Positions 17,167 to 55,967 are shown, numbered from the stretch's first letter. The stretch: 64,000 bases of DNA from an uncultured Gammaproteobacteria bacterium (GCA_964633995.1 CAZWKN010000004.1:1260-65259), one strand, 5' to 3'. Numbers and translations are program-made. The notes: generated by a model not told the origin, from the sequence alone.

Positions 17167-18444
17167 ATGACAAAAATACGGTCTAGTTATGTGTGTCAGC
17201 AGTGTGGGTATGTCCAGAGCCAGTGGAGTGGTAAGTGTCCCGAGTGTGATACGTGGAATTCGTTAGTAGAAACAGTTGCAGAAATCGCAAATCGCAAATC
17301 GCAAATCGCAAATAAGTCAAAAATATATCAACTATCTGATATAAAAATTGACGAGAAGAAGAGGATAAAGACGGGGATTGAAGAATTGGATAGTGTAATG
17401 GGGGGCGGATTGGTGGCTGGAATGGTGGTGCTGATTGCAGGAGAACCGGGAATTGGAAAAAGTACGTTGTTGACTCAAATAGGAAATGGGTCATTATATG
17501 TTTGCGGCGAAGAAAGTGCGTCTCAGGTGGCTTTGAGAGCGAAACGATTAAGCTTAAAAGGAGAAATGGATTTGTTGGAATCGACTGATGTGGATGAAAT
17601 CGTAAATAAGATGGATGGGGCTAAATTTGTGATAGTGGACTCGGTCCAGACATTAACGACCTCGGATTTGACGGGGACGGCTGGAAGTGTGGGTCAGGTG
17701 AGGGAGTGTGCAGCTAGATTGACTATGGCGGCAAAGAGACTAAATATCCCGCTGTTTATGGTCGGGCATGTAACTAAGGAAGGTAATATTGCAGGGCCCA
17801 TGGTGCTAATGCATGTAGTTGATACCGTATTGTGGTTTGAAGGTGAGCGGGGGCAGACATTGAGACTGATTAGGGCGGTAAAAAATAGATTTGGGCCCAC
17901 AGATGAAGTGGGGGTGTTTGAGATGAAAGAAGCTGGGCTTGTGGGGGTGAGTAATCCATCAGAACTAATGCTTGAAGAGCGGGTAAAAAACGTGCCGGGA
18001 AGTGTTGTGTCTGTAGTGTTGGAAGGCTCACGGCCAATGCTTATAGAAATTCAAGCTTTGGTTGTATCGAGTCAGTTGGCAATTCCCCGACGAGTGGGGA
18101 CTGGGTTGGATATGGCGAGATTGCAAATGTTGATTGCGGTGCTTATGAAAAGGGCCGGCTTGCAACTGGGGAGCGAGGATATTTTTGTGAATGTGACTGG
18201 GGGGATAAGGTTGGCAGATAGGGGAATAGATTTGGCTGTTTGTTTGGCAGTGGCCTCAAGTTTTTTAAACAAGAGTTTGGCTGGGGATATTGCCGCTGTG
18301 GGAGAAGTGGGATTGTTGGGAGAGGTGCGTAAGGTGACGGGATTAGAAAGGCGGGTTAAGGAGGCTAAGAAGTTGGGGTATAGAGTGGCTTCGGCAGAGT
18401 CGGGTAAGAGTGTGTCGGCGGCGATAAAAAAACTCCTAAACTAG
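17167..18444 (+). CDS. radA: DNA repair protein RadA/Sms
   Basis: N-terminal C4 zinc finger CQQCGY...CPEC, Walker A GEPGIGKSTLL, KNRFG motif and a C-terminal Lon-protease-like domain. Confidence 0.95.
   Translation: MTKIRSSYVCQQCGYVQSQWSGKCPECDTWNSLVETVAEIANRKSQIANKSKIYQLSDIKIDEKKRIKTGIEELDSVMGGGLVAGMVVLIAGEPGIGKSTLLTQIGNGSLYVCGEESASQVALRAKRLSLKGEMDLLESTDVDEIVNKMDGAKFVIVDSVQTLTTSDLTGTAGSVGQVRECAARLTMAAKRLNIPLFMVGHVTKEGNIAGPMVLMHVVDTVLWFEGERGQTLRLIRAVKNRFGPTDEVGVFEMKEAGLVGVSNPSELMLEERVKNVPGSVVSVVLEGSRPMLIEIQALVVSSQLAIPRRVGTGLDMARLQMLIAVLMKRAGLQLGSEDIFVNVTGGIRLADRGIDLAVCLAVASSFLNKSLAGDIAAVGEVGLLGEVRKVTGLERRVKEAKKLGYRVASAESGKSVSAAIKKLLN
17274..17312. repeat. degenerate heptanucleotide tandem array (aaatcgc x4-5) inside radA linker
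   Basis: gaaatcgc aaatcgc aaatcgc aaatcgc aaataag encodes EIANRKSQIANKS between the zinc finger and the ATPase. Confidence 0.9.
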
Positions 18445-18457
18445 GTTTTTCCTCAGG

Positions 18458-18574
18458 TTATCCACAGGCGAAAAGTGCAAAGTGTTAAGTGCAAAGTGCT
18501 AATACTAGTTATCCACAATGGGCTGTGTTATGCGGCAAATTAGGTATATTTGTATGCTATAGGTCTGTGGATAA
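18458..18574. promoter_or_regulatory. cluster of three perfect DnaA boxes (TTATCCACA at 18458-18466 and 18509-18517, TGTGGATAA at 18566-18574)
   Basis: Exact 9-mer consensus three times within 117 bp. About 0.5 occurrences are expected by chance in the whole window. The boxes flank the heptamer array 18471-18498. Confidence 0.5.
18471..18498. repeat. heptamer tandem array (aaagtgc aaagtgt taagtgc aaagtgc), intergenic
   Basis: Four 7-nt units. Lies between two DnaA boxes. Confidence 0.85.
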
Positions 18575-19294
18575 ATGGCCCATAGAAAACTATGGGATTG
18601 ATAAAATTGACAGGGGTTGGTATACTCCCGGGTGAGGACCACAAGTAGCAAGAGTTATGCGTAAACTGCTCAGATTATGGTTTCGTAAGAGTGCCGTACG
18701 AAGACGGGGTGTTTTGGGGAGCAATTGGATGAGAGGGCAATTGGCCCAGGCTGTAAAGGTGAATCAAGGAGTTATTTTGATGGGGATGGGGAGGTAGTGA
18801 ATAATACTATGTTTACCGAGGCATCGAGACGATTATTGTTAGACAAGGCCAGGTTCGATCACGCGAGTGGTTGGGTGCTGTGGGGGGCGAGTATGTTGGC
18901 GTTGGTTACAGGAAATAGAGATTTGGGTATTTTATTCCTGGGGTTATCTTTTCCGGTATCGATTGATGCTGCTACTAGTTATTTCTCGGCATTTGTTCAC
19001 AAAAATAGGCATTAAAAAAGAGCATCGCCATCGCTGGATTGAGGACCACGAGTAGCAATGCCCTTTGAGAGATAATCGCCTGGACAGATACGGCGATTTT
19101 CACTTGATAACGGTGATAACATTTAAAGATCACCCTTGTCAAGAAAAAAAAGTCCTTATATTTCGCACCTTTTTAAATTAATTAGCCTCTTTGATGTGTA
19201 CTCAGCATGGAGGACCTGAAAAACGTAGTGGAATTTGATAGTGAGCAGGGCAGGCTGACTATTAGTCCACTTGTCCAGGTCTTCCATGGTGAGT

Positions 19295-20089
19295 ATGAAA
19301 AAATATTGCTTATTGCTTATTGCGTATTGCCTATTTTTTGGAATTGCCACTTCCCCTGCAAGGGCGGCTATTTCGTATGGAGCGGGTTACTACACCAATT
19401 TATGTGATAGTGGGACGTCGGCTAAGTTTTATAACTGTGATCCTGGGTGTAATCCTTCTTTGGGATCGTGTATCGGGAAGAATGAGGGAGTGGTGAAGTG
19501 GGTATGTAGTGGAAAATGGGATCAGTGTTTGGAATCCGAAAGCAACTGGAGTAATGCTGAAAGTTTTAATGGGATGAGTTGTGGTAAGACGGCGCAGATT
19601 TCACTGTTTGATAAAAAATGTCGCCGTGATGATGGCAGTTGGGATCAAACCTGCGTCTTGAAGGGATATATGGTGTGGTACTCGGGGGATTGTAAATCTG
19701 GGATGGTCGTTGATACGCCAAAACCGACGACAACGGTGGTACCGACTGTAAAAATAACACCGACCAAATCCGTATCTCTGGTGCCTTCTGCAACTCTAAC
19801 TCCGACTCCGACTATCATCGTAAAGATTTCCGAGGCGCCCAGCGTGTGTGGCGTGGCCTGTACTCCTTTGGGTGGATGTAAAGCTGGATTGGTGTGCACA
19901 AAAGGGGTTTGTAGAAACCCTGCATGTAATCAGGAGAGTAGCTGCTTTTGCGGAAAGATATTAGGATCTGCTGTTGCGACAAAGCCGCCCGAAACAGGTT
20001 TTAATGTTTGGCAGTGGAGTATCGTGTGGATGGGAATATTTGGTTTGGGATGGTATTTGAAAAAAATGGCTGTTAAAGTTTGGAAGTGA
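19295..20089 (+). CDS. secreted Cys-rich protein with Thr/Pro linker and C-terminal sortase-type sorting signal (KPPETG + hydrophobic segment + KK tail)
   Basis: Signal peptide MKKYCLLLIAYCLFFGIATSPARA with a GGTGA RBS. C-terminus ...ATKPPETGFNVWQWSIVWMGIFGLGWYLKKMAVKVWK. The sortase gene follows with an overlapping start. Confidence 0.6.
   Translation: MKKYCLLLIAYCLFFGIATSPARAAISYGAGYYTNLCDSGTSAKFYNCDPGCNPSLGSCIGKNEGVVKWVCSGKWDQCLESESNWSNAESFNGMSCGKTAQISLFDKKCRRDDGSWDQTCVLKGYMVWYSGDCKSGMVVDTPKPTTTVVPTVKITPTKSVSLVPSATLTPTPTIIVKISEAPSVCGVACTPLGGCKAGLVCTKGVCRNPACNQESSCFCGKILGSAVATKPPETGFNVWQWSIVWMGIFGLGWYLKKMAVKVWK
19304..19338. repeat. heptamer tandem array (tattgct x2, tattgcg, tattgcc, tattttt) encoding the signal-peptide h-region
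   Basis: Same tattgc unit as the intergenic array at 46610-46637. Confidence 0.85.
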
Positions 20090-20733
20090 AGCGGGGATTA
20101 ATTTATAAGAGTGGAGTTTATCGGGAGCCTGTCGGTTTGGCTGGGATAGTCGAGGCCCTAAAAGCTGTTGCCAGGTGGCTGGTGAGGGTGGGTAGGTTTT
20201 TGATGGTATTGGCTGTTGTTGGAGCGGTTTATATATATTTACCGTTGGGAATAGCTTGGATAAATTACTCCAACCATAAAGTGACGAAAGAGTTGGTGGT
20301 GGAAGATAATAATTATGCCGTTTTTGTGCCGAAAATTGGTGCTTTGGCGGCGGTTATTCCAAATGTGGACGCTAATAGTAAAGAGGCTTATGGGCTGGCT
20401 TTAAGGGCGGGGGTGGCGGAAGCTGCTGGAATGGCTCATCCAGGTGAGATGGGGACTACTTTGTTATTTGCTCATTCGGTGGGAGATAGGATAGATTTTG
20501 CAAGGTATAACGCAGTTTTTTACTTGTTAGACAAGCTGGGTTTAGGGGATACGGTGGAGATTGTTTATAAGGGTAAATTATTGCGATATGAGGTTGTCCG
20601 GAGAGAAATATTGGAACCAGAAAATAATGCCTATTTTAAGCCTCAAAAATTGTCTGAACAACTGGTTTTACAGACGTGTTGGCCACCAGGGACGACGTGG
20701 AAGAGATTGGTAGTTGTAGGGAGGAGAATTTAG
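20080..20733 (+). CDS. sortase (cysteine transpeptidase), membrane-anchored
   Basis: N-terminal TM. Catalytic His region LLFAHS, TLxTC-type motif LVLQTCWP, and a conserved C-terminal Arg in RLVVVGRR. Confidence 0.75.
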   Translation: MEVKRGLIYKSGVYREPVGLAGIVEALKAVARWLVRVGRFLMVLAVVGAVYIYLPLGIAWINYSNHKVTKELVVEDNNYAVFVPKIGALAAVIPNVDANSKEAYGLALRAGVAEAAGMAHPGEMGTTLLFAHSVGDRIDFARYNAVFYLLDKLGLGDTVEIVYKGKLLRYEVVRREILEPENNAYFKPQKLSEQLVLQTCWPPGTTWKRLVVVGRRI

Positions 20734-20809
20734 TGTTATACTCGCATTTGAACTTCTGGTTTGCCTCAATATTTTTTGATAAATGACCTCTTTTTGAAAT
20801 CTTTGGGAT

Positions 20810-22153
20810 ATGTCTGACAACAATGATGGTGTAATAAATGTTCCGCCCGGACCGGTTTCTGATGGGCAGGATGTAGCAATGGCTTCTCCGGGTGTAAGGT
20901 CTATGATGAGACCTGGTGTGGTCCGAGTTATAGGTAGGGTAGTTCCACGCCCAGCCCCCAGTTTCAATGGCCAGAATCAACAGGCGCGTCCGATAGTTAG
21001 GGCGCCTATTTATCAACAGGAAGAAAGAGTGATTCCCGATTCTGGTTGGCCCACTGAATACGTAGAGGGATTTTTGGATATTACCCCTGATGGGCATGGT
21101 TATTTAAGGCCCAAGATGGTACCCTCTTCTAAGGATGTTTATATTTCTTCTTCTCAGGTAAGAAGGTTTAATTTACGCCCCGGAGATTTGGTGGGTGGCC
21201 AGGCAAGGGAGCCCAAAGAAAATGAAAGATATTGGGGGCTTTTGAAAGTCGAAAAAGTAAATTCTGGGACACCAGAACAGGCGGCAACCAGGCCAGAATT
21301 TGACAACATGACGGCTGTTTTTCCGGAGGAACAGTTGGTTTTGGAGACCGATCCCGAAATAATGTCGACGAGGATCATCGATTTGGTGGCCCCGATCGGA
21401 AAGGGTCAAAGAGGACTTATTGTGGCCCAACCTAAGGCTGGGAAGACATGGTTACTTAGGGACATTGCTCAGTCGCTGACCAAAAATTATCCGGATATGC
21501 ATTTGATGGCGGTGCTTATAGGGGAAAGGCCTGAGGAAGTAACGGAGATTATCAGATCACTAAAGGGAGAAGTGGCTGCGTCGCATTTCGATGAGCCTCC
21601 CTTGGAACAAGTTAGAATTGCCGAATTGGCTTTGGAGCGGGCCAAAAGATTGGTAGAGATGGGTAAGGATGTGTTTATCCTGTTGGACTCGATTACACGA
21701 CTGGCCAGGGCATATAACATGATTACTTCTGGGTCGGGTAGGATGATGTCTGGAGGATTTTCGGCAGAAGCTATTTATCCCGCCAAAAAAGCTTTTGGGG
21801 CAGCAAGAAAATTTGAAGAGGGTGGAAGCTTGACTATTTTGGGTACATGTTTGGTGGATACTGGTTCCCGACAGGACGACTTGGTTTATGAGGAATTTAA
21901 AGGAACCGGAAATATGGAGTTGCATTTGGACAGAAGACTGGCTGATAGGCGAGTGTTTCCGGCATATGATATCTTGAAAAGTGGAACCAGAGGTGAAGAA
22001 AAATTGTTGGGCAAGAGATACGAGAAGGTAATTCAACTTCGGAGAATGTTGGACTTACTAAACGAGGATGAACGGACAGAATTGTTGATTGCGAAAATGA
22101 AAAAGACTAAGAATAACGACGACTTTTTGGAAAGCTTGACGAAGGCTGGTTAA
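20810..22153 (+). CDS. rho: transcription termination factor Rho (with N-terminal low-complexity extension)
   Basis: CSD-like RNA-binding domain (RFNLRPGDLVGG) and an ATPase domain with Walker A GKGQRGLIVAQPKAGKT and Q/R loops. Confidence 0.95.
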   Translation: MSDNNDGVINVPPGPVSDGQDVAMASPGVRSMMRPGVVRVIGRVVPRPAPSFNGQNQQARPIVRAPIYQQEERVIPDSGWPTEYVEGFLDITPDGHGYLRPKMVPSSKDVYISSSQVRRFNLRPGDLVGGQAREPKENERYWGLLKVEKVNSGTPEQAATRPEFDNMTAVFPEEQLVLETDPEIMSTRIIDLVAPIGKGQRGLIVAQPKAGKTWLLRDIAQSLTKNYPDMHLMAVLIGERPEEVTEIIRSLKGEVAASHFDEPPLEQVRIAELALERAKRLVEMGKDVFILLDSITRLARAYNMITSGSGRMMSGGFSAEAIYPAKKAFGAARKFEEGGSLTILGTCLVDTGSRQDDLVYEEFKGTGNMELHLDRRLADRRVFPAYDILKSGTRGEEKLLGKRYEKVIQLRRMLDLLNEDERTELLIAKMKKTKNNDDFLESLTKAG

Positions 22154-22154
22154 C

Positions 22155-23156
22155 ATGTCCGATATTCAAGCCAGAAAACAGCAACATTTGGTTTTGGCGA
22201 TGGATGAGAGAAGTCAGGGAAATTTGGATTTGTGGAAAGAGGTTGGTTTACCATACAAAACACTGCCAGAGATTAACTTGGCAGATGTAGATACGGCAGT
22301 TAATTTGTTAGGAAAGAAGATTAATCAGCCGTTAATTATCGGGTCGATGACGGGAGGGTCGGAGCATGCGGCCCAGATAAATACAAATCTGGCAATTGCC
22401 GCTGAGCAAATGAGAGTGGGGTTGGGAGTAGGTAGTCAGCGGGTCGCTTTGGAAAAAGCAGATGCGAAAAAGACATTTGAATTAGTTAGAAAATACGCAC
22501 CGACGACGGTGGTTTTTGCTAATATGGGCGCGGTGCAGTTGAACTATGGCCACACGGTTGAGTCGTATAAGAGAGTCGTAGATATGATTTCTGCAGATGG
22601 ATTGTACTTACACATAAACCCCATGCAGGAAGCTTTACAGCCGGAGGGAGACACAAATTTCGAATTTCTAATTTCTAAGATTGAAAAGTTGGTAAAAGAA
22701 ATTGGTGTGCCGGTGTTTGCCAAAGAAGTTGGTGGAGGAATAGATGTGGAATCAGCCAGGAAATTGGTGAATGTGGGGGTAGCTGGAATTGATGTGGCAG
22801 GGGTTGGGGGAACAAGTTGGACATGGATTGAGGGAATGCGGCGGCAAAATGACCGGCTGACTAGTTGGTTTTCTGATGCTGGGTATAGGACAGACGAATT
22901 ATTGCCGAAAATCAGGAAGGAATGCCCTGAAGTGATGTTGGTGGCTAGCGGGGGAGTACGGAGCCCTATTCAGGGGTTAAAAGCCATGATAATGGGGGCT
23001 AACTATTATTCGGCGGCAAGGCCGTTTTTGGGGCCAGCTATGGATTCGGCTGAGGAGGTGGTGAGGTTGGTAGCGGATTGGGAAAGCGGGTTTAGGATTG
23101 CGTTGTTTGGTACCGGCAAGAAAAAACCACCTAATGGTGGCTTGGGCTTTTCTTAG
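22155..23156 (+). CDS. fni: type 2 isopentenyl-diphosphate delta-isomerase (FMN-dependent)
   Basis: RKQQHL, IIGSMTGGS, GVGSQR, VFANMG, HINPMQEALQPEGD and AKEVGGGID motifs co-linear with Fni. Confidence 0.85.
   Translation: MSDIQARKQQHLVLAMDERSQGNLDLWKEVGLPYKTLPEINLADVDTAVNLLGKKINQPLIIGSMTGGSEHAAQINTNLAIAAEQMRVGLGVGSQRVALEKADAKKTFELVRKYAPTTVVFANMGAVQLNYGHTVESYKRVVDMISADGLYLHINPMQEALQPEGDTNFEFLISKIEKLVKEIGVPVFAKEVGGGIDVESARKLVNVGVAGIDVAGVGGTSWTWIEGMRRQNDRLTSWFSDAGYRTDELLPKIRKECPEVMLVASGGVRSPIQGLKAMIMGANYYSAARPFLGPAMDSAEEVVRLVADWESGFRIALFGTGKKKPPNGGLGFS
22656..22676. repeat. heptamer array (aatttcg aatttct aatttct) inside fni
   Basis: Same aatttct/taatttc unit as the array in murD (28999-29033). 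Confidence 0.8.
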
Positions 23157-23263
23157 GGTCTTCTTTACAACCCTCGGATCAATCTGGTTTATCGCGATTG
23201 ATAGTATTGAGTATACCAGGGGACTTGAAGCAAGTCAATGCTGAGTGGTAAATTGGCCGAACT

Positions 23264-23497
23264 ATGGACAAAAAATTGCTGAAAGAAAAACTGGAAAAAT
23301 TAAAAAAGGATTTAATTCAGCTGGAGACGGTCGAAGCCGAAAAAATAAGACTGAAGCGGATTGAGGCGGATATGGAAGATGATTACAGAGAGAATGAGTA
23401 TGCAAAGATGGTGATGGGGGACCATGATCTGTTGTGGGTTAGAAAGTTGGAATTAAAGAGGGAGATAGTTAAGTTGAAAAAGATGCTTCTTACTTGA
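23264..23497 (+). CDS. small coiled-coil protein (77 aa)
   Basis: Charged heptad-rich ORF with no known motif. Confidence 0.4.
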   Translation: MDKKLLKEKLEKLKKDLIQLETVEAEKIRLKRIEADMEDDYRENEYAKMVMGDHDLLWVRKLELKREIVKLKKMLLT

Positions 23498-24776
23498 CCC
23501 AGATAGCTTGGTCTGAAACGGTGGTGTCAAAGGGGCCGGTTACGGCGCATGAATTGGTATCGGCGACCTGGTTGGTCTTGAGGGACAGGATGTATTTGCT
23601 ATCTGAAGACCAGATTTGGGCTGGGATTGTGGTGGAATACGTAAAATTGGTATAGTCACAGTCAGAAATAAGGTCGCCGCTTAAGGAGTAGGTTTTAAAG
23701 CCTTTGTATGGAAGGAGTACTTTGTCCGATCCGGGGTTGGGAATAGGTACAGAGGAGGTATTTGGTGTATGTCTGTTAAAGAAAAACGAGTCGCCTGATT
23801 TAGTATTGAGATTAAAGGAATATAAGGGGTTTTCGTCGATATTGGGATCGTAAGAATCTTTTTTAAAGTTAAGATATGCAAATGACGGATTGACAGAATT
23901 GAAAGAAATAAGTTCGCCATAAGGTTTCCTGTCGGTTGAACTTTCGGCCAATAATAGTTTCTCCTTGGTTTGGGAGTCGAACAGTATTAATTGGTTGAGA
24001 CTGTTGTAGAGGGTGATGTAGCGGTTATCAGGTGAATAATGGTGAGATGCGGGGTTAAGCTGGTCGGTGACCTTGACAACATTATTTCCGGAATACTCAC
24101 TTTCGTACAAGACTCCGTTTTGAATGTATGAAACTTTGGGTTTGTTGGGAATAAAGACAAGAGAGCCTTCGGAGGCAATATCGACAAGCCTTCTTTTGGT
24201 GGTCATATCAAATAAGGTGTTGGATTTACCAGAATTCCAAACATTGAGATACAAGTTATCGGCCGACCAGGTGGGATGGCTTGGGATTTGGTCTGGCGGG
24301 GTGATAAATTCGGTTAACGGAGCAAGTGTGTTGGCAAGATCTAATACTTTAAGACCTGAAACTTCGGATGAGCCGAAAATAATGGCCAGAAGTTGGCGAT
24401 TTGGGGAGAGTGACAGTTCCAAAACGGGGGACTTTACGTCTAGTAATAGGGATTTTCTGGGTCCTTCGGGAGTAAAATTGATGAGCCAAAGTTGATTATC
24501 GGAAACGGTTATAAGTTGGTGGCCGGAGAGTGCGGTTAGGGGAAGTCTGTTTATGGATGGAGGAGGGGGGTTGGTTGTAAGAGTAGGAATAGGAGATGGG
24601 GAATTTGATGAGGTGGGGAGTGTGGAGGTGGGTTTGGGTCTTGGTTTCGAACCATTTTTAATCAAGGACAATAGGATAATAAGTAATAATAAAATGGCGA
24701 GAATGCCACCGAGAATAGGAAAGAAAAGTTTGGGGATTTTGAGCATGGCGAAGGGGTTTGTGGACGGCAGTTCCAT
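23490..24776 (-). CDS. membrane-anchored beta-propeller (TolB/PD40-like) protein with Pro/Thr-rich stalk
   Basis: N-terminal TM, PT-rich linker, and repeated approximately 40-aa beta-strand blocks. Confidence 0.5.
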   Translation of the reverse strand: MELPSTNPFAMLKIPKLFFPILGGILAILLLLIILLSLIKNGSKPRPKPTSTLPTSSNSPSPIPTLTTNPPPPSINRLPLTALSGHQLITVSDNQLWLINFTPEGPRKSLLLDVKSPVLELSLSPNRQLLAIIFGSSEVSGLKVLDLANTLAPLTEFITPPDQIPSHPTWSADNLYLNVWNSGKSNTLFDMTTKRRLVDIASEGSLVFIPNKPKVSYIQNGVLYESEYSGNNVVKVTDQLNPASHHYSPDNRYITLYNSLNQLILFDSQTKEKLLLAESSTDRKPYGELISFNSVNPSFAYLNFKKDSYDPNIDENPLYSFNLNTKSGDSFFFNRHTPNTSSVPIPNPGSDKVLLPYKGFKTYSLSGDLISDCDYTNFTYSTTIPAQIWSSDSKYILSLKTNQVADTNSCAVTGPFDTTVSDQAIWVK

Positions 24777-24785
24777 GGAGTTACT

Positions 24786-25784
24786 TTAGACTATTTTGAC
24801 TTCGTATTCCAGGTCGATGTCAAAATGTTTTTTAACATCTGCGCGCATGAGTTCGGAATAATTATAAATTTCTTGACCAGAGGCTCCGCCTAGGTTGATG
24901 ATGTTTAGAGCTTGGTTTGGCGATGTGGAAACTTTGCCAATTTTCTTTCCTTTCCAGCCTAATTCATCTACTACTCTGGCGACAGAAAGTTTGACGTATT
25001 TATCCTGCGTATTGGGATCCGTATATGAAAGTCTGTCGACGGGGTAAGCCAAAAGGTCCGGAACTTGAGTTTGCAGGTGGATAAATTTTTCTTTGGTAAT
25101 AATCGGGTTTTTAAAAAATGAACCGGCAGTACCTACCCTTTTTATGTCTGGGAGTTTGTCTGTGCGGATTTTGATAACGGCGTTAAAAATGTCTCTAATA
25201 GTGAACGGCTCTTTGGCTATTTGTTCTAGGGTTGGAAGTAATGAAGCGTGGCGTGTGGCGCGATATGAGGTTTCCAGGTGAGGAATTTTGGAAAGACGGT
25301 AGGTGGTTGATGTAACTAATAATTCAGGGTGGTTTTTGAAATAACTGTCGCGGTAAGAAAATTGACAATCTGATTTTTGAAAAGTTTGAGAGGAAGTTTG
25401 GACACTAACGAGGACATCTTCCTGGTTTTGGCCGTAGGCGGCGATGTTGCCTATCACGGCGCCACCGACGGTGCCTGGGATTAAGGCCATGTTTTCCAGC
25501 CCAGAGAGATTGTGGTCGACAGACCAGGTGACTAAATCGTGCCAGTTTTGGCCTGCAGCGGTTTCTATTAAAACATCAGTGTCTGTTTCTTTAATAACTT
25601 TAATACCGGAGAAATTTATTTTAACGACGGTACCTAGAAAGTTTTTAGTAAACAGAATGTTGGCGCCGCCACCGAGAAATAAAATTGGTTCGTCTTTGGG
25701 AAGATCATTGGGATTATTTAACTCGATGAAGTTGTTGGCATTAGCGTGGACGCGGAGGGTGTTGTAGGGGAAAAGATCTATCAT
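24786..25784 (-). CDS. murB: UDP-N-acetylenolpyruvoylglucosamine reductase
   Basis: FAD-binding PxNT...ILGxGSNxLF-like block (PYNTLRV...FLGGGANILF) and LENMALIPGTVGGAVIGNIAAYG. Start chosen at the internal ATG (MIDLF) abutting the murA stop, rather than the 98-nt-overlapping upstream ATG. Confidence 0.8.
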   Translation of the reverse strand: MIDLFPYNTLRVHANANNFIELNNPNDLPKDEPILFLGGGANILFTKNFLGTVVKINFSGIKVIKETDTDVLIETAAGQNWHDLVTWSVDHNLSGLENMALIPGTVGGAVIGNIAAYGQNQEDVLVSVQTSSQTFQKSDCQFSYRDSYFKNHPELLVTSTTYRLSKIPHLETSYRATRHASLLPTLEQIAKEPFTIRDIFNAVIKIRTDKLPDIKRVGTAGSFFKNPIITKEKFIHLQTQVPDLLAYPVDRLSYTDPNTQDKYVKLSVARVVDELGWKGKKIGKVSTSPNQALNIINLGGASGQEIYNYSELMRADVKKHFDIDLEYEVKIV

Positions 25785-25785
25785 G

Positions 25786-27075
25786 CTAGGATTCTTGAAT
25801 GACTGCCCCAAGGGATTTGAGATTGTTAACAAAGTTGGGATGACCGCGGTGAATAGCGTCTGCATTTTGAATGACGGTTTCACCTGTAGCGATCATGGCG
25901 GCCATGGCCATGCTGATGACGGCTCTGATAATGTAGGGAGCTTCCAGTTTGGTGCCGGAAAGTTTGTTGCCGCCGGTTGCAATAACACGGTGTGGGTCGC
26001 ACATGAGAATATTGGCACCGAGTTTGGTAAGTTCCGATGTCCAAAAAAGACCTGCTTCGTACATCCAGTTGTGAAACAAGACTTGTCCAGATGGGGCCGC
26101 GAGTGCCAGGGGGATAAAGAGGGGAAGCATGTCGACAGGAAGGGCGGGCCAGGGTTGGGCGCGGATGATCAAGGGGGATGTGGATTTGGTAATGGTTGGA
26201 GTTTGGCCGGATGCGATGGTGGCCGTATCGGCGTCATAGGTAATTTTGATCCCAAATTTGGCAAATTCCCGATTTATACTAATGGAATGGCCGGGTAGAC
26301 TTTTTTTGACTTTGATTTGGCCGTCGGTAATGGCCCCCAGGGCAAGAAAAGTTCCGATTTCGTAAATGTCGGAGATTACGGTGTATGGTATGGGGGATAA
26401 GGGATGGCCGCCTTCGATGGTAAGAATGTTTGATCCAATGCCAGAAATTTTGGCTCCGGCAAGGTTGAGAAAATTACAGAGTTCCTGTACATGTGGTTCA
26501 CTGGCTGCATGGGTAATCGTGGTGGTGCCGTGTAGGGTGACAGCTAGCATGATGGTGTTTTCCGTGGCGGTGGGACTGGCTTCCAGGAGCCAAACCTGGC
26601 CTGGCTTGGCGCTCGTGGCGTCAAAGATAACTCCGGAAGCGGTGACGTTGACCTTTACCCCTAGGTCTAAAAATGCTTGATAATGGGCATCTATAGGACG
26701 GGCGCCTAAGGTGCATCCAGCTGGTTGTTCTGAGCTTTCGGCTTTTTGGAATCTACCCAACATTGGGCCCCAAAGTAGAGTCGTCCCCCGGATACCCTTG
26801 CCGGTGCCGACGTCGTTTTTATCTAAGGGGTCATATCTGACGGAGGAATTATCGATGGTTAGAGTGCAGGTTTTTTTGTTCCAGTCAATGTTGCTTCCGA
26901 GCCCCATTAGAATAGTTACCAACCTTTGAACATCAGTAATATCGGGGACATTGGTTAGGGTGACTGGTTTGTCAAAAAGAAGGGTGGCTGGGATGAGGGC
27001 GACAATTGAGTTTTTGGAACCTGAGGGAGTAATTTCTCCAGAAAGTTTCTGTCCACCCAGGATAGTGAGATTCAT
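25786..27075 (-). CDS. murA: UDP-N-acetylglucosamine 1-carboxyvinyltransferase
   Basis: N-terminus LTILGGQKLSGEITPSGSKNS. EPSP-synthase fold with the active-site Cys loop region conserved. Confidence 0.95.
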   Translation of the reverse strand: MNLTILGGQKLSGEITPSGSKNSIVALIPATLLFDKPVTLTNVPDITDVQRLVTILMGLGSNIDWNKKTCTLTIDNSSVRYDPLDKNDVGTGKGIRGTTLLWGPMLGRFQKAESSEQPAGCTLGARPIDAHYQAFLDLGVKVNVTASGVIFDATSAKPGQVWLLEASPTATENTIMLAVTLHGTTTITHAASEPHVQELCNFLNLAGAKISGIGSNILTIEGGHPLSPIPYTVISDIYEIGTFLALGAITDGQIKVKKSLPGHSISINREFAKFGIKITYDADTATIASGQTPTITKSTSPLIIRAQPWPALPVDMLPLFIPLALAAPSGQVLFHNWMYEAGLFWTSELTKLGANILMCDPHRVIATGGNKLSGTKLEAPYIIRAVISMAMAAMIATGETVIQNADAIHRGHPNFVNNLKSLGAVIQES

Positions 27076-27111
27076 ACTTGATCATTATAGCGAGTAATGT
27101 AAAGTGGGGAT

Positions 27112-27951
27112 ATGGGAATAAGTAAGGTTGTTGTATCGACTCTCAGAAGTCATCCAATGCAATTGCCCACGAGTGAAGAAATAAAACAAATGATGGCTAT
27201 TGAGGCGAAGTGTGATCCTTCAACATCAAAACACTTTCCGGATTTTTCTGTGGCTAATGAATGGTTAGAATTGTTGAAGGTTGAGTCGGATTTATTTTTA
27301 AAGTTTTCTTCTATTGTAGAAACTAACGATGAGGTTGAAAAAATTAAATCAGTGGTAGTCGAGAGAACCCTAAGAGAAAGGCCGATGAGTTTATTTAATA
27401 AGATAGAAGGTTATTTGGGTGAAGAAGATAAACTGGAAAAATGTGAGGTGGCGATTGTGTTTGGTGGAAAAACACTGTCTAGGGCAAATAAGGGTGCGCA
27501 AATGTATTTGGATGGATGGGTTGAAAAATTACTAATGACAGGAAAAGGGCCGGTTTATAAGGGGGTTTTTAAAGAACCAGAAGCAATCGTATTTAAAAAG
27601 AGGGCAATGGAATTGGGTGTTTCAGAAGAGAAAATATTAACCGAGTGTGAATCGATAAATATTCCCAGTAACGTCAGGGCAAGTCTAAATTTGCTTGATG
27701 AATTGGGAATCAAATATAAAACAGTGATGCAAATTATTTCATGGTACGCAAACCGAAGAGCCTGGGTAACTCTGAAAAAGTATGTTGAGCCAGGAGTTCG
27801 GATAATAAGAGTAAATCCGGATTTACCAAAAAATGATGGTAAGCCGAACGGTTACGATAGGGGTGAGTGGTACAAAACTGGGGAAGGGATAGAAATAGTT
27901 TTTAATGAGTTTGTGAAGATGGTGCATCAAGTGGTGACTGATGCTGCGTGA
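27112..27951 (+). CDS. DUF218 (YdcF/ElyC/SanA-family) protein
   Basis: CEVAIVFGGKTLSRANKGAQMYLDGWVEKLLMTGKGP matches the DUF218 core. Confidence 0.6.
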   Translation: MGISKVVVSTLRSHPMQLPTSEEIKQMMAIEAKCDPSTSKHFPDFSVANEWLELLKVESDLFLKFSSIVETNDEVEKIKSVVVERTLRERPMSLFNKIEGYLGEEDKLEKCEVAIVFGGKTLSRANKGAQMYLDGWVEKLLMTGKGPVYKGVFKEPEAIVFKKRAMELGVSEEKILTECESINIPSNVRASLNLLDELGIKYKTVMQIISWYANRRAWVTLKKYVEPGVRIIRVNPDLPKNDGKPNGYDRGEWYKTGEGIEIVFNEFVKMVHQVVTDAA

Positions 27952-31618: not shown

Positions 31619-31619
31619 T

Positions 31620-45368: not shown

Positions 45369-46526
45369 ATGCGGATTGGAATTGATGCCAGTAGGGGGTT
45401 TGTGAATGAGCCGACCGGGACGGAACGATATAGCTACGAATTGATAACCCGAATTTTGGCCTTGCCGGAAGCCAGGGAGCATGAATGGATACTCTATGCG
45501 CGAAATTTATCAGTTAACAGTTTTCAATTGGCATTTAAAAACTGTCAAATGCCAAATGTTAAATTGGTAAATATTAGTTTACCGAGGCTGTGGACCCAAG
45601 TTGGATTGGCATATCGGACGTGGGTGGATAGGTTGGATGTACTTTGGGTGCCAGCTCACACCCTTCCCCTACTTCGCCAGCCTAGCTGGCTTCGAAAGGG
45701 CAGGCTACTAAAAACAGTGGTCACAATACATGGAATTGAGTATGAGTGGTTGCCTGCATATGAGAATAGGCTTCAAAGATGGTATTTACCACTCAGTACT
45801 CAGTATGCAGTACGCAGTGCTCAAAAAATAATAGCGGTGAGTGAGTTTACAAAGAAACAGTTGGTGGAGAGGTTGGGGGCAGATGCTGGAAAAATAGAAG
45901 TAGTTTACGAGGGAGCGGGATCAAATCCTAAACCCGAAACTCTAAACACCAAACTAATTCTTAGTAAATACAACTTGCAGGAGAAAAAGTATCTGTTGTT
46001 TGTGGGAACAGTGCAACCGAGAAAAAATTTAGAGAGATTTATAGTGGCTTATGCAGGACTCAGGGCACCCATTCGACAGGCTCAGGGCAAGCAGGACTCA
46101 GGACTCAAATTGGTGATTGCGGGGAAGTTGGGGTGGAATTATGAGAGGGTAGTGGAATTGGCAAAGAAACATGGTGTGATAATTACTGGATATATAACGG
46201 AAGCAGAAAGATATATTCTGTTACAGAATGCAGTAGTCTATGTGCAACCAAGTATTACCGAAGGGTTTGGGTTGCCGGTTTTGGAAGCTATGAAGGTTGG
46301 GGTTCCTGTCGCTAGTTCGAATGGGGGTGCTTTGGCCGAAGTAGTGGGGGGCGCGGGTGTGTTGTTTGACCCATATAATGTATCTGATATGAGTCTTAAA
46401 TTGTCATTGGTCATTCATAGTCATTCGTTGCAAAAAGAATTAATCGAGAAGGGAAGAAAACGAGTGAAAGAGTTTGGGTGGGAAAAAGCGGCTAAAATGA
46501 CTTATAATATATTAACTGTCAATTGA
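45369..46526 (+). CDS. GT4-family glycosyltransferase
   Basis: C-terminal EGFGLPVLEAMKVGVPVASS and E-x7-E region. Confidence 0.8.
   Translation: MRIGIDASRGFVNEPTGTERYSYELITRILALPEAREHEWILYARNLSVNSFQLAFKNCQMPNVKLVNISLPRLWTQVGLAYRTWVDRLDVLWVPAHTLPLLRQPSWLRKGRLLKTVVTIHGIEYEWLPAYENRLQRWYLPLSTQYAVRSAQKIIAVSEFTKKQLVERLGADAGKIEVVYEGAGSNPKPETLNTKLILSKYNLQEKKYLLFVGTVQPRKNLERFIVAYAGLRAPIRQAQGKQDSGLKLVIAGKLGWNYERVVELAKKHGVIITGYITEAERYILLQNAVVYVQPSITEGFGLPVLEAMKVGVPVASSNGGALAEVVGGAGVLFDPYNVSDMSLKLSLVIHSHSLQKELIEKGRKRVKEFGWEKAAKMTYNILTVN
45791..45818. repeat. heptamer array (actcagt actcagt atgcagt acgcagt) inside the GT4 gene
   Basis: Four units encoding LSTQYAVRSAQ. Confidence 0.85.
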
Positions 46527-46609: not shown

Positions 46610-46637
46610 TTATTGCTTATTACGTATTGCGTATATA
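46610..46637. repeat. heptamer array (ttattgc ttattac gtattgc gtatata), intergenic
   Basis: Four units in the GT4-to-TagA spacer, which also carries a roughly 20-bp direct repeat catttga(a/g)gctaaaat (46560/46672). Confidence 0.8.
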
Positions 46638-48546: not shown

Positions 48547-49704
48547 AGGTTCTATCTTGACGAATCGGCGGCCGACGCGAACCACAGTGGGGTTAGGGGA
48601 TAGGGTATAGGTGTAAGTTGTAATTTTTTCGTTGTTGACGGAAACTCCACCCTGGTCAATGAGCCGCCTAGCTTCTGATTTGGAGGAGGCTAAATTTGAG
48701 TCCACCAAAATGTCTAAAATGTTAGTTGATTGGGTTGAAATGGTGGGAAGTTCTTGTGGGGTTGAACCCTGTTGAAAGATGGATTCGAATGATTTTCTTG
48801 CCAAGTCTGCAACGGATGGGGAGTAAAGTTCAGAGACTATTTGCCAGGCCAGTTGTTTTTTCAGATCCATAGGATTGGTAAATTGTAATTTTAAATTTGA
48901 AATTTGGATTTCAGTGAGATTGGTGGCCAGTTCGAAGTATCTGCCAATAAGTTCGTCCCGAAGTGACATGGTTTTACCAAACATTTCGTCTGGGGTATCT
49001 TCCAGCCAAATGGCATTACCCCAGCTTTTGCTCATTTTACGACCGTCAGTGCCTTCCAAGAACTCATTTGCCATGACGAACGATTCTTTGTCGCGGAGTT
49101 TTTTTTGTAGGGTACGGCCGGCTTGCATGTTAAAAGTTTGATCTGTGCCACCTAGTTGGAGATCGGTGTCTAAATACCAGGAATCGTAACCTTGCATTAG
49201 TGGGTAGAGAACCTCGGGAAGTGAAATAGAGTTGTTGTTTGAAAGGCGTTTTTTGATGAGTTCACGGGAAATAAAATCATTTAGGCTAAAATGGCGGGCC
49301 AGTTTAATAATGTCTTCAAAATTGAGCTTTTTTAGCCAATCAGAGTTATGGACAATCGTAATTTTGGAAAAATCCAGAATTTTTGAAGCTTGTCTCTTGT
49401 AGGTTTGAAAATTTTCTTCTATTTGGTCGTAGGTTAGTATGGGACGCTCAGTGTCTTTGTCGGAAGTGTCTCCAATCAGGGCTGTAAAATCGCCAATCAA
49501 AAAAGTGACATGGTGGCCAAGTTCGACAAAGGTTTGCAACTTACGGAGTGGGAAAGCGTGGCCAATGTGAATACGTGTGGCAGTGGGGTCTATACCAAAA
49601 TACACGTTAAGTTTTTTATCTGAGCGAAGCAATGTCTCGAGCTGTTTTTTGTCGGGAATTATATTGGCAACGCCGTGGGAAAGTAGTTTTTGAATTTGAT
49701 CCAT
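48532..49704 (-). CDS. tyrS: tyrosine-tRNA ligase
   Basis: HIGH (RIHIGHAF), KMSKS, and a C-terminal S4 domain. Confidence 0.95.
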   Translation of the reverse strand: MDQIQKLLSHGVANIIPDKKQLETLLRSDKKLNVYFGIDPTATRIHIGHAFPLRKLQTFVELGHHVTFLIGDFTALIGDTSDKDTERPILTYDQIEENFQTYKRQASKILDFSKITIVHNSDWLKKLNFEDIIKLARHFSLNDFISRELIKKRLSNNNSISLPEVLYPLMQGYDSWYLDTDLQLGGTDQTFNMQAGRTLQKKLRDKESFVMANEFLEGTDGRKMSKSWGNAIWLEDTPDEMFGKTMSLRDELIGRYFELATNLTEIQISNLKLQFTNPMDLKKQLAWQIVSELYSPSVADLARKSFESIFQQGSTPQELPTISTQSTNILDILVDSNLASSKSEARRLIDQGGVSVNNEKITTYTYTLSPNPTVVRVGRRFVKIEPLVNT

Positions 49705-49744
49705 GGGTTAATTCTAGCACGTGAATGGATGCAAAAATATTTGT

Positions 49745-52784: not shown

Positions 52785-53159
52785 ATGAAAAATAGATTCC
52801 AGTCCATTGGAAGTGAATCACTAGGGTTGGTTTTGAGTATGGTTGGTTATTCAATTCTGTCTGTCGTCTTGGGAATCGTAGTTGGCTATGCGGCCGGTTT
52901 AATGAATTTGGGAAGAAGTAATGGAATATTTTCAATATTACTTCAATTGATATCAGCTATTGGATTTGGGTTTGGGGGAGTATTAATCCCATTAGTGGTG
53001 GTAATTCGGGGGATGGTGAAGTTATTTAAAATAAATGGGCAAAGTCAATTGGTCAGGGCGGGAGTTGTGGGGTTGGTAATGGTGGGATGTGGGGTTTTAT
53101 TATTTTTGGTTGGACGTGAGGCGTATCGGTATCTATTTTGGTCACCCCGGGGTTATTAA
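52785..53159 (+). CDS. hypothetical membrane protein (124 aa)
   Basis: Four predicted TM helices. Abuts the proS stop. Confidence 0.45.
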   Translation: MKNRFQSIGSESLGLVLSMVGYSILSVVLGIVVGYAAGLMNLGRSNGIFSILLQLISAIGFGFGGVLIPLVVVIRGMVKLFKINGQSQLVRAGVVGLVMVGCGVLLFLVGREAYRYLFWSPRGY

Positions 53160-53210
53160 ATTCGGAAAGTTGTGGTTGACAGGTTGGTTTGATATCTTTA
53201 ATATCTCCAA

Positions 53211-54320: not shown

Positions 54321-54350
54321 CATAATGTATTTTGACGGTAGAATGGTGGG

Positions 54351-54698
54351 ATGAATTGGGAACGGAAGTTTAGAGTTATTGGTTCTGTTGCTCTGAGTGG
54401 GCTAGCGATAGCTAGTTTGTGGTTTGCAAACATGGTGTCTGCTGGGGGATCCGATGTGACACCGACTTTTTGGCCACCAGAGATGACACCCACACTTGCG
54501 CCAGCTTCTGTGGATGTGTATGTTCCACTTGTGTTAAATGGGGCTCCGCTGGCGACTTCGACTATTGCGTGGCCTCCAACTGAAACACCAACTCGAACTT
54601 CGTTTCCTACTCCAACCATTGATCTGAACTTTGATACTCCAACCCCAACGTCGACACATACAGCGCTTCCTCCCCCCCAATACAATTTGTTGCCTTAG
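54351..54698 (+). CDS. small secreted Pro/Thr-rich protein
   Basis: Signal-anchor plus low-complexity PT repeats. Confidence 0.35.
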   Translation: MNWERKFRVIGSVALSGLAIASLWFANMVSAGGSDVTPTFWPPEMTPTLAPASVDVYVPLVLNGAPLATSTIAWPPTETPTRTSFPTPTIDLNFDTPTPTSTHTALPPPQYNLLP

Positions 54699-54725
54699 GT
54701 TTAATTTTTGGTATGATTAGCGGGC

Positions 54726-55967
54726 ATGGGAAAGACTGATGTGATTACATTGCCTCCTGGGACCAAGGTGCCTAACCATATTGCGATGATACTGGATGGA
54801 AACAGGCGGTGGGCGCGGGCGAGAGGATTAAAACCTTGGGAAGGGCACGCAGCGGGGTATCAAGCAATTAAGGAGTTGTCTGAGGCCACAAGAATGCTGG
54901 GAGTACATACGTTTACGGTTTGGGCGTGGTCTACGGAGAATTGGGAGAGGTCAGAAGTGGAAGTAAGTGAGATTATGAAATTGTTGAGGATGGGTTTGGA
55001 CGAGATGGAACCCGATTTGCACAGAGAGAAGATAAGGTTGGTGCATTTGGGGCGAAAGGATAGGTTGCCGAAAGATGCTCTCGAGCATATTGCTAGGCTT
55101 GAGGCGGAGACGAAACAATACAACGACTCGCATGTATTTAACATTGCTTTGGATTATGGTGGTAGGGATGAGCTGGTGAGGGCGGTTAAACAAGTTATCA
55201 CTGATCAGGTATCAGTTGATCAGTTGGATGTGAAAGTGTTTGAGAAATATTTGGATACGTGTGATCAACCTTATCCCAATGTAGATTTGTTTATCAGGAC
55301 CAGCGGAGAGCAGAGAACATCGGGACTTTTGCCTTGGCAGATGGACTATGCAGAATATTATTTTGAACAGGACCATTTACCGGATTTTAGTCCGGAAAAG
55401 TTGCGGGAAGCGATAATGGATTTTTCTAGGCGCAGGAGGCGGTTTGGGGCTAATGACAAAGAGGAGCATTTAAGGTTCAACCCCAAAATAGTGGCTGATT
55501 TAGAGGTTAAATGGAGACATGCTTTGGCGGGGGGAGAGACGGAGAGATTAAGAGATTTAGTGATTAAGTATGTGGGTGAGCAGTATGGATTGTCGAAGGA
55601 GCTGGCGTATGATGCTGGAGTAAATTTGGCCAAGGCGTTGATGTACAGGCGACAGGAAAATTGGGTAGAGGCTAAAAAAGCACTGGTGGGGTTGTATGGA
55701 ATTGTACAAAAAACGTTGAAATTGGCATTTGAGCCGGAGGTAATTGCTAATATTGAAGTGAATTTGTGGAACCCTCCTTTGCGGGACGCTTCGGAAGGGC
55801 AAGAGGGGCGGTGGCAAATGTATTTGGCAGAGAAATACAGGATTTCTAAGTTGCAGGCGGCTAAATCAGCTCATTTGGCGGTGTTGGCGGAGCGGGAGGT
55901 TGATCCCAAAAAACAAAAAGGATATTTGGAAATGTTTTACGAAGCACTGAAAGAAAGAGTGGCCTAG
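54726..55967 (+). CDS. uppS: isoprenyl transferase (undecaprenyl-diphosphate synthase family) with roughly 170-aa C-terminal extension
   Basis: HIAMILDGNRRWA, FTVWAWSTENWER, and RTSGEQRTSGLLPWQ (the RxSG...W of cis-prenyltransferases). Confidence 0.85.
   Translation: MGKTDVITLPPGTKVPNHIAMILDGNRRWARARGLKPWEGHAAGYQAIKELSEATRMLGVHTFTVWAWSTENWERSEVEVSEIMKLLRMGLDEMEPDLHREKIRLVHLGRKDRLPKDALEHIARLEAETKQYNDSHVFNIALDYGGRDELVRAVKQVITDQVSVDQLDVKVFEKYLDTCDQPYPNVDLFIRTSGEQRTSGLLPWQMDYAEYYFEQDHLPDFSPEKLREAIMDFSRRRRRFGANDKEEHLRFNPKIVADLEVKWRHALAGGETERLRDLVIKYVGEQYGLSKELAYDAGVNLAKALMYRRQENWVEAKKALVGLYGIVQKTLKLAFEPEVIANIEVNLWNPPLRDASEGQEGRWQMYLAEKYRISKLQAAKSAHLAVLAEREVDPKKQKGYLEMFYEALKERVA

Follow-up and report, generated by a model that had tools for sequence, protein, structure and literature searches.

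Dense heptanucleotide tandem arrays in the housekeeping genes of a Candidatus Amesbacteria-like genome, a probable mutational footprint shared across its lineage

Heptanucleotides are the most abundant class of long simple sequence repeats (SSRs) in most prokaryotes, and the stretch of DNA contacted by the polymerase has been proposed as the cause (Mrazek 2007, as cited in PMC4692102 and PMC4679880). Here we describe short head-to-tail arrays of 7-nt, and sometimes 8-nt, units in a 64,000-nucleotide stretch of DNA (GCA_964633995.1, CAZWKN010000004.1:1260-65259; hereafter the window, with positions counted from its first letter) that, judged from its encoded proteins, is from a Candidatus Amesbacteria-like organism, an uncultured ultra-small bacterium of the Microgenomates in the candidate phyla radiation (CPR). 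These arrays are probably microsatellites produced by a heritable, lineage-wide process acting at the level of the DNA, and represent a mutational footprint and neither switches nor binding sites.

The arrays of the window and the LSSR(5-11) class of long SSRs (Mrazek, Guo and Shah 2007) have in common head-to-tail 7-nt units, a predominance of period 7 over periods 5, 6, 8 and 9, an attribution to slippage and a diversity of units. As far as the cited accounts of that class extend, however, it occurs mainly in large free-living genomes with its non-triplet units mostly in non-coding DNA, whereas the host here has a reduced CPR genome in which array density is at least as high in coding as in non-coding sequence. 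The window arrays also differ from the class in being capped at about 4.6 copies, in often replacing coding sequence without a change of length and in occupying sites conserved across lineages; they are iterated in tandem and exceed the expectation from composition, but the 12 compared between near-identical strains, a small sample, did not vary in copy number, and the arrays do not avoid coding sequence. The cyanobacterial STRR family (Calothrix, Anabaena and Nostoc) and the GGGNATC repeats of Xanthomonas and Nostoc are likewise dispersed, lineage-enriched heptanucleotide tandem repeats, and those of Xanthomonas occupy the same loci in related species with varying length and sequence (PMC4692102). 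These families have one to three dominant units per genome, are intergenic and sometimes long (26-mers and more), and are in some cases G-rich and quadruplex-forming (PMC4692102), whereas arrays of the type seen in the window comprise 78 distinct canonical units among 124 arrays, are AT-rich and G-depleted, lie mostly in coding sequence and have at most five copies, the recurrence of AATTTTC (9 times) and AGTCGTC (5 times) being a partial echo of a small set of genome-specific units. The TAACTGA repeats of marine Beggiatoaceae and some cyanobacteria are also heptamer direct repeats of two to six copies found genome-wide, for which the constraint of being read in three frames has been discussed (PMC4679880). 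That family has a single unit, mostly located just upstream of start codons, is untranslatable in the forward direction and has a proposed role in translation (PMC4679880), none of which applies to the window, where units vary and most arrays lie within genes. Full-text literature searches yielded no account of heptamer arrays in CPR or Patescibacteria. What is new relative to the known heptamer excess is the reduced CPR host, the high density, the tolerance of arrays inside housekeeping genes, the persistence of sites across lineages and the mostly length-neutral character of the arrays.

A preliminary description of the window listed 13 arrays, all of which are present in the sequence at the given positions and were reported by Tandem Repeats Finder (TRF), ten with period 7 and three with period 8 (33271-33303, 45256-45298 and 55202-55226). 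TRF added about 11 others, starting at 1693, 2376, 7778, 10534, 14884, 17130, 43129, 46092, 48589, 48883 and 55543, several of which fall beyond the range first described. The claim that they are far more frequent than in composition-matched shuffled sequence holds: period-7 arrays of at least 2.8 copies number 13 in the window, while 60 order-3 Markov shuffles average 0.23 with a maximum of 2, and period-8 arrays number 5, compared with 0.38 in the same shuffles; periods 5, 6, 9 and 10 are at background level. Exact lag-7 self-match runs of at least 10 number 7, compared with 0.14 in shuffled sequence. Coding sequence, 51.5 kb in all, contributes 8 exact lag-7 runs of length 9 or more, as opposed to 0.28 after codon-order shuffling and 0.57 after synonymous-codon shuffling with every protein kept. 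TRF arrays are therefore in 56-fold excess, and relative to protein-preserving codon shuffles the excess is about 14-fold. Because the synonymous shuffle removes the signal while the proteins are kept, the periodicity is a property of the DNA and not of protein repeats or codon usage, and 7-residue repeats at the protein level are ruled out as its cause. We give almost no credence to the explanation that the arrays are a side effect of chance, codon usage or protein repeats, or an artefact of assembly. They are indeed short and AT-rich, and those in murC and at 43129, 46092 and 14884, with just 2.3-2.4 copies, are unconvincing singly, but the Markov, codon-order and synonymous-codon shuffles all yield at least 14-fold fewer arrays, which rules out chance and composition. 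Assembly artefact is ruled out in turn by an independent Logan assembly of run SRR8893623 (contig L161), which is 100% identical to window 17284-31825 with six arrays included, and by the recurrence of arrays in metagenome-assembled genomes (MAGs) from many projects and assemblers; at 30 nt, moreover, the arrays are far below sequencing-read length. Searches with the Rho and NUDIX proteins recovered this run, and an exact search with RadA gave no hit because the sole recorded contig begins within the array. This explanation is effectively refuted.

The RadA protein of the window is 67-77% identical to those of Candidatus Amesbacteria MAGs and MurC up to 79% identical, and the window was assigned to the Microgenomates within the CPR because these two proteins are closest to Amesbacteria MAGs. 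Relatives were compared as individual loci, referred to below by L numbers. Period-7 arrays occur at 20 per 100 kb in the window, 23 per 100 kb in nine Amesbacteria loci and about 10 per 100 kb in other CPR loci. In 613 kb of non-CPR controls (Chloroflexota and others) there are 2.4 per 100 kb, and period 6 leads, as coding DNA predicts. The density is thus atypical for bacteria, as had been suspected, and differs between Microgenomates/Amesbacteria, other CPR and non-CPR loci in a lineage-specific way. Since many CPR loci of 12-21 kb, including some of equal or lower GC content, contain zero arrays, density follows lineage and not base composition; AT-richness is ruled out as its explanation, the lowest-GC CPR loci having the fewest arrays. 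Across 1.3 Mb of CPR-like loci, density was 20 arrays per 100 kb at an absolute GC skew above 0.25 and 4.5 per 100 kb at a skew below 0.08, with the low-skew loci L016, L020 and L031 as array-rich exceptions.

The + strand of the window consists of 29.0% G and 15.4% C along nearly its entire length, independent of gene orientation, and the GC skew of +0.25 to +0.44 over positions 1-60000 is an extreme one-strand G/C disparity. The same disparity is present in L001-L005, L008, L009, L025, L081-L083 and L089-L110, and in the relatives it has the same sense at the radA locus and at the murC locus. In sister Microgenomates (Ch65, Collierbacteria and Beckwithbacteria), G and C make up 29.8% and 15.0%, the cumulative skew never turns, and unidirectional replication has been proposed (PMC7143001). 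The window contains 0 homopolymer runs of at least 9 nt, where order-3 Markov shuffles predict 7.2; it appears that slippage tracts of short period have been purged, in contrast to the enriched tracts of period 7.

Array length is 16-34 nt and seldom more, with a TRF mode of 29-32 nt, equivalent to 4.1-4.6 copies; the mode of about 30 nt also holds for non-coding arrays, perfect examples of which have 3.1-4.9 copies. Units have an AT content of 69%, compared with about 56%, and are G-poor on the G-rich strand. Long open reading frames (ORFs) contain 142 of 187 period-7 arrays, and the density in coding sequence (17-24 per 100 kb) is at least equal to that in non-coding sequence (9 per 100 kb). 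Every coding array is in frame, as originally described. A tandem heptamer is read in all three frames, and by hand enumeration the only AT-rich heptamers free of stops in the sense direction are those of the type C-A(m)-T(n). The consensus would contain a stop in 62 of 139 coding arrays, and the real arrays have a variant unit at that point; for 23% of 131 deviations from the array consensus, the consensus base would have introduced a stop at that position (baseline 5.7%). The unit position that had been described as drifting is accounted for by these variants, which stand where the consensus would create a stop. Synonymous positions were not enriched among the deviations (21%, baseline 21%), and neutral decay of ancient perfect arrays under purifying selection is unsupported for that reason.

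All but two of the window arrays have their own unit. Sharing of units between unrelated genes had been proposed, and TAATTTC is indeed a rotation of AATTTCT and TATTGCT resembles TATTGCG, but such sharing is not significant in the window alone. The suggested cagt/agtt core is not general across the listed units, and no shared flanking or core motif was seen by eye. The diversity of units speaks against a sequence-specific site. There was also no significant gene-strand or replication-direction bias: G-rich-sense genes have 34 arrays where about 39 are expected, and C-rich-sense genes have 24 where about 19 are.

Alignment with orthologues places the arrays at recurrent sites. The perfect radA array, AAATCGC x4.6 (17282-17313, + strand), lies in the linker behind the Zn ribbon (codons 39-49) and encodes IANRKSQIAN. 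This site has equal length in all Amesbacteria orthologues, and nearly every Microgenomates relative has an array of its own there, TRF calling one in 10 of 39 orthologues: a perfect (AAATCCG)4.6 in L006, about 7 copies of AAAACAG in L016, AAAGGTC in L012, AGTCGTC in L020 and arrays of period 8 in L014 and L017. Two more radA sites carry arrays in relatives, one of them within a segment of conserved length (QRLASSVKRLG in L002 and L008). The radA gene of Amesbacteria GW2011_GWA1_47_20 (L008:2323-2420) is frameshifted right after the linker array, and is either a real pseudogene or the product of an assembly error beside the repeat.

In the cluster of mur genes, the murD array (GAAATTA x4.6 on the sense strand; 28999-29030, - strand) lies in the N-terminal domain and encodes YLLEIRNYKLVIK where orthologues have YLSHLTDYSLVIK, an exchange of equal length in a conserved-length Rossmann segment, not a linker, that runs up to the conserved KTPGISP motif; in L091-L093 this site is occupied by another array (TCACTAA). 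The gene between murD and murC (29166-30329, - strand), previously taken for a PP-loop gene, matches Pfam MurL_N and MurL_epimerase_C and is therefore murL, and from the family names we take its product to be the epimerase of the alternative glutamate route in peptidoglycan synthesis. Its array (CAACTGN x4.6 on the sense strand; 29555-29586, - strand) adds exactly 7 codons (21 nt) relative to the nearest relatives, L081 and L082. At this site L097 and L088 have their own TRF-called arrays and L091 and L092 are array-like by eye. The weak array in the N-terminal domain of murC (GATGCTA on the + strand, 2.4 clean copies; 31439-31455, gene on the - strand) is without length change relative to orthologues. 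Two sites are occupied in murE, both on the + strand. Site 1, at the end of the middle domain (AGTTTTC x4.6, 33110-33141), encodes FQFSVFNSQL; relatives have arrays of related units there, TCTCAAT in L097 and AATTTTC x4 in L091 and L092, and by hand count 12 residues separate the DDP motif from KS in L091 as opposed to 5 in L089 and L103, a difference of +7. Site 2, just before the FxGVxGR motif (period-8 TAAGTCAT x4.1, 33271-33303), is without length change in any orthologue and is occupied by period-8 arrays in L103 and L108 (TAAGAGAT), by TRF-called period-7 arrays in L095 (TATTCGG) and L105/L118 (AATTTTC) and by a period-7 array recognized by eye in L106. Several lineages also have arrays at the equivalent of site 2 in a paralogous Mur ligase.

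Perfect arrays elsewhere are similarly length-neutral or nearly so. The array at L095:7498 (AATGCTC x4.3) stands in a segment of 24 codons, matching the 24 of 10 orthologues, that at L095:12537 in one of 25 versus 25, and those at L159:1081 and L097:6447 each add 1 codon. Overall, of 145 orthologue cases compared at the array sites of the window, 20 had an array, where random placement would give 3.4; the observed count was reached in 0 of 5000 permutations, although the cases are not phylogenetically independent. The nearest relatives, L081 and L082, carry four period-7/8 arrays in about 13 kb, two of them with at least 2.8 copies, and close relatives are without an array at most sites. The earlier view that all arrays are insertions in interdomain linkers of essential genes needs revision on both counts: codon alignments reveal length-neutral replacement in murD, at murE site 2 and at the radA sites, with a clean gain of 7 codons solely in MurL, and arrays are also found in the tyrosyl-tRNA synthetase (TyrRS) gene and, in the case of murC, GT4 and uppS, in the catalytic domain. 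Nor are they clade-specific insertions, since the sites are common to deeply diverged Microgenomates with a different unit in each lineage; insertions specific to the window are ruled out by the orthologue alignments.

Comparison of related genomes indicates that units change together. The perfect radA arrays of the window and L006, whose RadA proteins are 69% identical, have the same position and length and differ at the same two bases in each unit, and between L002 and L105 the same unit position differs in several units of one array. These concerted changes point to homogenisation inside arrays without change in length. The array sites of L097 and L098, in which aligned segments are 84-94% identical, show length differences of +12, +21, +9 and 0 nt. 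The sole strain difference at an array-like site was observed in murL at L091:9905-10050, which, relative to the 99.5% identical L093, contains 44 substitutions and a 3-nt gap in about 150 nt, the tract ending at the array site; its appearance is that of a short segment imported from a diverged relative by homologous recombination, not of slippage. The L109/L110 indels are not tandem repeats and look like assembly gaps.

Slippage or a short template-directed process, as originally suggested, is the best reading of the arrays given their excess in the DNA, their concerted units and their nature as a lineage trait. In the Microgenomates/Amesbacteria, the growing strand would re-pair 7 nt out of register and recopy the neighbouring unit, by slipped-strand misalignment or by templated conversion. 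Selection acts as a filter in genes, eliminating nearly all outcomes and leaving as survivors length-neutral overwriting of about 20-30 nt or the addition of three units (21 nt, 7 codons), with unit variants persisting wherever a perfect repeat would create a stop. The survivors lie where the identity of a residue or base matters little but length does, as in linkers, loops, a poorly conserved Mur ligase segment, the core of a signal peptide, a 23S expansion segment and a DnaA-box spacer, and arrays do occur in every permissive context, rRNA and intergenic spacer included. An established array would be kept homogeneous by the same process (concerted evolution), and because existing arrays are homogenised in this way, distant relatives would retain arrays at the same sites while the unit drifts. 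Templated (misalignment) mutagenesis of the type described by Ripley, which acts between imperfect direct repeats, produces clustered length-neutral changes and makes the repeats identical, but is known as rare individual events in model organisms. Both the length-neutral arrays and the concerted unit changes agree with this mechanism, which is not, however, known to shape about 20 sites per 100 kb in a fixed 7-nt register.

Several observations weigh against slippage in this simple form. Exact lag-7 runs are bimodal, and after removal of duplicates the perfect arrays comprise 8 of three copies and 15 of four (mode 30 nt) with none of at least five, a distribution that is therefore not as classical one-unit slippage predicts; nor does one-unit slippage predict a perfect four-copy array that replaces an identical number of codons. 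The four-copy mode, the missing longer arrays and the exact conservation of length are left unexplained by one-unit slippage, and a jump from one to four copies in an essential gene needs either three units at once or inviable frameshifted intermediates. No copy-number change was found in 12 arrays, a small sample, between strains that are 99.5-99.9% identical, so that the process must be slow or its products mostly purged. The units AATTTTC (9 times), AATTTCT (7 times) and AGTCGTC (5 times) recur in unrelated genes and lineages 20-70 times above the prediction from heptamer frequencies, for which the need for a stop-free AT-rich unit accounts only in part, and no polymerase or repair gene tied to the array trait was found. 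The copy-number mode, its upper limit and the conservation of length therefore leave room for the rewriting of a patch in a single event. We wondered accordingly about a dedicated, possibly enzyme-driven mechanism by which about 21-30 nt would be resynthesised at once as tandem copies of an adjacent heptamer, and consider it unlikely. Possible agents would be a repair polymerase that stutters, a primase-polymerase or a short template copied reiteratively, and the mechanism would act as an intrinsic diversifier of tolerant protein segments. Such a mechanism would fit the sharp four-copy, 30-nt mode with nothing of at least 35 nt and its counterpart in non-coding arrays, the perfect arrays that replace an orthologous segment of exactly equal codon count, the strongly lineage-specific presence or absence among CPR, and the preferred units at unlinked loci within a lineage, such as AGTCGTC in L031, L020, L022 and L117. 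It is countered by the lack of a candidate enzyme, by the many arrays whose consensus would contain an in-frame stop, which can never have been perfect and fit gradual partial conversion better, by the differences between L097 and L098, which follow no fixed quantum, and by the mostly local and diverse units. Stated in its strongest form, that Amesbacteria-type Microgenomates possess a heritable "heptamer overwriting" in which about 21-30 nt are replaced in one length-neutral step by four copies of an adjacent 7-mer, the proposal is equally doubtful. Heptamer overwriting might have some connection with the unusual way in which these genomes replicate, apparently in one direction, and, if true, would be a new class of templated multi-nucleotide mutation that constantly re-randomises tolerant protein segments, rRNA expansion segments and regulatory spacers.

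Two further explanations invoke a function for the arrays. If they acted through their periodicity and not their sequence, for example as sites for a cold-shock or S1-type single-strand binder with one protein per heptamer, as elements of DNA unwinding or bending or as structured RNA, selection would have fixed them at their sites. The conservation of sites across deep divergence is consistent with this, as are the DnaA box-array-box spacing of 50-51 nt in the window and L007 (a layout also seen in L004 and L006), the hairpin-capable inverted arrays in L031, L022, L117, L014 and L017 and, by eye, in the 23S insertion of the window, and the binding of CspB to heptamer direct repeats, as reported in a study cited in PMC4679880. 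We nevertheless regard a periodicity-based function as distinctly improbable because the unit, and even the period (7 or 8), varies between lineages at one site, because close relatives often have no array, as L081 and L082 illustrate, and because gene-strand bias is not significant; there is likewise no common motif by eye, the coding arrays of the window have no inverted partner, and the hosts are unrelated housekeeping genes with no shared regulatory logic. Contingency-type repeats had also been offered as an explanation, under which the gain or loss of one unit would switch a gene off and on. A unit length that is no multiple of three would suit such phase variation, and contig L161 has its first base at 17284, two bases inside the perfect array of radA and right at its exit; assuming a Logan k of 31, this is the branch point expected in a de Bruijn graph if a longer (AAATCGC)n allele or locus is present in the sample. 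Phase variation is very unlikely all the same. Its usual hosts would be surface, restriction-modification or otherwise dispensable genes or promoters, and the hosts here are radA, murC, murD, murE, murL, tyrS, uppS, fni, 23S rRNA and others, many of them essential; copy numbers are at most five, most arrays are imperfect, and 0 of the 12 arrays compared between near-identical strains differ in copy number. Target-site duplications or excision footprints of transposons were dropped as candidates, since four copies and diverse units do not fit them and sister genomes are reported to be without mobile elements (PMC7143001). The simplest account that covers every context is a mutational one, combining misalignment in a 7-nt register during DNA synthesis with strong filtering.

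The remaining arrays are distributed along the whole window, in which tRNA-Ile, an ABC/HlyD export cluster, tRNA-Ala, 23S and 5S rRNA are followed by pyrG, rpsA, radA, sortase and its substrate, rho, fni, murB and murA, and then by murD, murL, murC, murE, leuS, comEA, comEC, glycosyltransferases, tyrS, uppS and a large LamG protein. Two arrays on the + strand lie in a HlyD-like gene (1607-2611; Pfam), namely AAAAACT x3.3 (1693-1715) and AATTGAC x4.6 (2376-2407), which encodes KLTTDNGQLTI. An alpha/beta-hydrolase gene (Pfam) contains AAATGGTC x3.5 (10534-10559, +), a site with an array in 0 of 4 orthologues, and a weak array of 2.3-2.4 copies was called at 14884. The 42-nt spacer between rpsA (S1) and radA holds a period-8 array, GAAGAGTA x4 (17130-17162, +). 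Downstream, TATTGCT x4.6 (19304-19335, +) forms the hydrophobic core of the signal peptide of a secreted protein next to the sortase gene, and AATTTCT x3.3 (22656-22678, +) lies in the fni-like gene (FMN_dh), where by hand-reading the first junction is altered to CGA and the unaltered repeat would put an in-frame TAA there. CAGTGCT x2.4 (43129-43145, +) is in comEA (Pfam), and a period-8 array with a 77% match, AAGCGATT x5.4 (45256-45298, +), encodes the C-terminus of a metallo-beta-lactamase-fold protein after comEC. The GT4 gene has ACTCAGT x4.7 in its N-terminal domain (45791-45823, +) and a second short array, CAGGACT x2.3 (46092-46107), and the spacer between it and the gene of a WecG-type transferase (Pfam) has TATTGCG x3.4 (46611-46634, +). 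The tyrosyl-tRNA synthetase gene (Pfam; - strand) contains GGGGATA x3.3, as read on the + strand (48589-48611), and a second array, TTGAAAT x3.4 (48883-48906). In uppS (54726-55967), which encodes 413 residues with the prenyltransferase domain extending to residue 241 and then a C-terminal extension of about 170 residues without a Pfam match, an array of mixed period 7/8, TGATCAGT x3.2 (55202-55226, +), lies inside the prenyltransferase domain and one of period 8, AGAGATTA x3.2 (55543-55568), in the extension.

The spacer downstream of radA combines an array with three perfect DnaA boxes (TTATCCACA) within 117 nt (18458-18574), directly 3' of the radA stop. Two are direct (18458-18466 and 18509-18517) and the third, at 18566, is inverted, and the array AAAGTGC x4 (18472-18499, +) separates the two direct boxes. 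The first box abuts the radA stop in L001-L004 and L006-L008 as well, and the box-array-box layout recurs with other units in L004, L006 and L007, with a spacing of 51 nt in the window and 50 nt in L007. As regards a replication origin, the boxes are conserved in relatives, the skew does not change sign and the neighbours are rpsA, radA and a 46-residue ORF; a switch of skew cannot decide the matter because the skew of sister lineages keeps one sign along the whole chromosome (PMC7143001). The cluster could represent a DnaA-regulated promoter or the origin of a unidirectionally replicating chromosome. The small basic ORF 3' of the boxes (18657-18797) encodes 46 residues (42-47 in relatives) with the conserved pattern ...WMRGQLxxMxxLNQGVISMSxGR, has a putative TTGACA/TATACT-like promoter of its own, and was seen in all Amesbacteria relatives inspected (L001-L007 and L025); the gene caller of L161 did not predict it.

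The 23S rRNA gene (6560-9838) is 3279 nt long, compared with 2925 nt in the model, and contains an AT-rich insertion of about 85 nt together with about 270 nt of further extra bases. In the cmscan alignment the insertion (7771-7856, +) falls in a hairpin loop between model positions 1218 and 1219. Its 5' arm is a period-7/8 array of ATTTATC (TRF 7778-7809, +), and by eye the 3' arm reads as an approximate complement of this array. Hancock and Dover reportedly described compensatory slippage in the expansion segments of eukaryotic rRNA; the insertion is alike in having a repeat array and a by-eye complementary arm, but is here one instance of a genome-wide bacterial pattern. No hairpin partners were found beside the arrays of the window. 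In Daviesbacteria-like relatives, by contrast, inverted array pairs occur in which a unit array is followed after 7-27 nt by its approximate reverse complement, some requiring G-U pairs (L031:3309-3389 and 13068-13140; L022:2477-2553; L117:2166-2231 and 16950-17008; L014:3696-3741; L017:1798-1873). Such pairs would fold into long hairpins whose stems have heptamer periodicity, and may represent elements of the terminator or REP type that arose through slippage in each arm; those of L031, at least, are located outside long ORFs. The rRNA genes depart from the standard operon arrangement: between tRNA-Ile (521) and the group of tRNA-Ala, 23S and 5S lie 5 kb of transporter genes, and the window has no 16S rRNA gene. 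At the other end (60001-64000) the GC skew falls to +0.09 and the GC content rises to 47%. The gene located there (60935-63970, - strand) encodes 1011 residues with four LamG/concanavalin-like domains and a clostridial-toxin receptor-binding-like domain, and this DNA may have been recently acquired.

The signature described here is robust, lineage-wide and partly unexplained, and does not on present evidence amount to a new molecular system. If our reading is true, a large uncultured group of bacteria has a mutational signature that rewrites about 1% of the codons of its housekeeping genes. It could serve as a lineage marker and account for part of the unusual insertions and rapidly evolving stretches of CPR proteins and rRNA, and since array segments would not be homologous residue by residue, caution is called for in alignment and phylogeny. 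The coexistence of array-rich and array-free sister lineages would allow their polymerase, replication and repair gene content to be compared for the reason why a 7-nt register is preferred. With array density about four-fold higher in high-skew loci, a possible link between the chromosome-wide G/C disparity of these organisms (PMC7143001) and the fidelity of their replication becomes testable.

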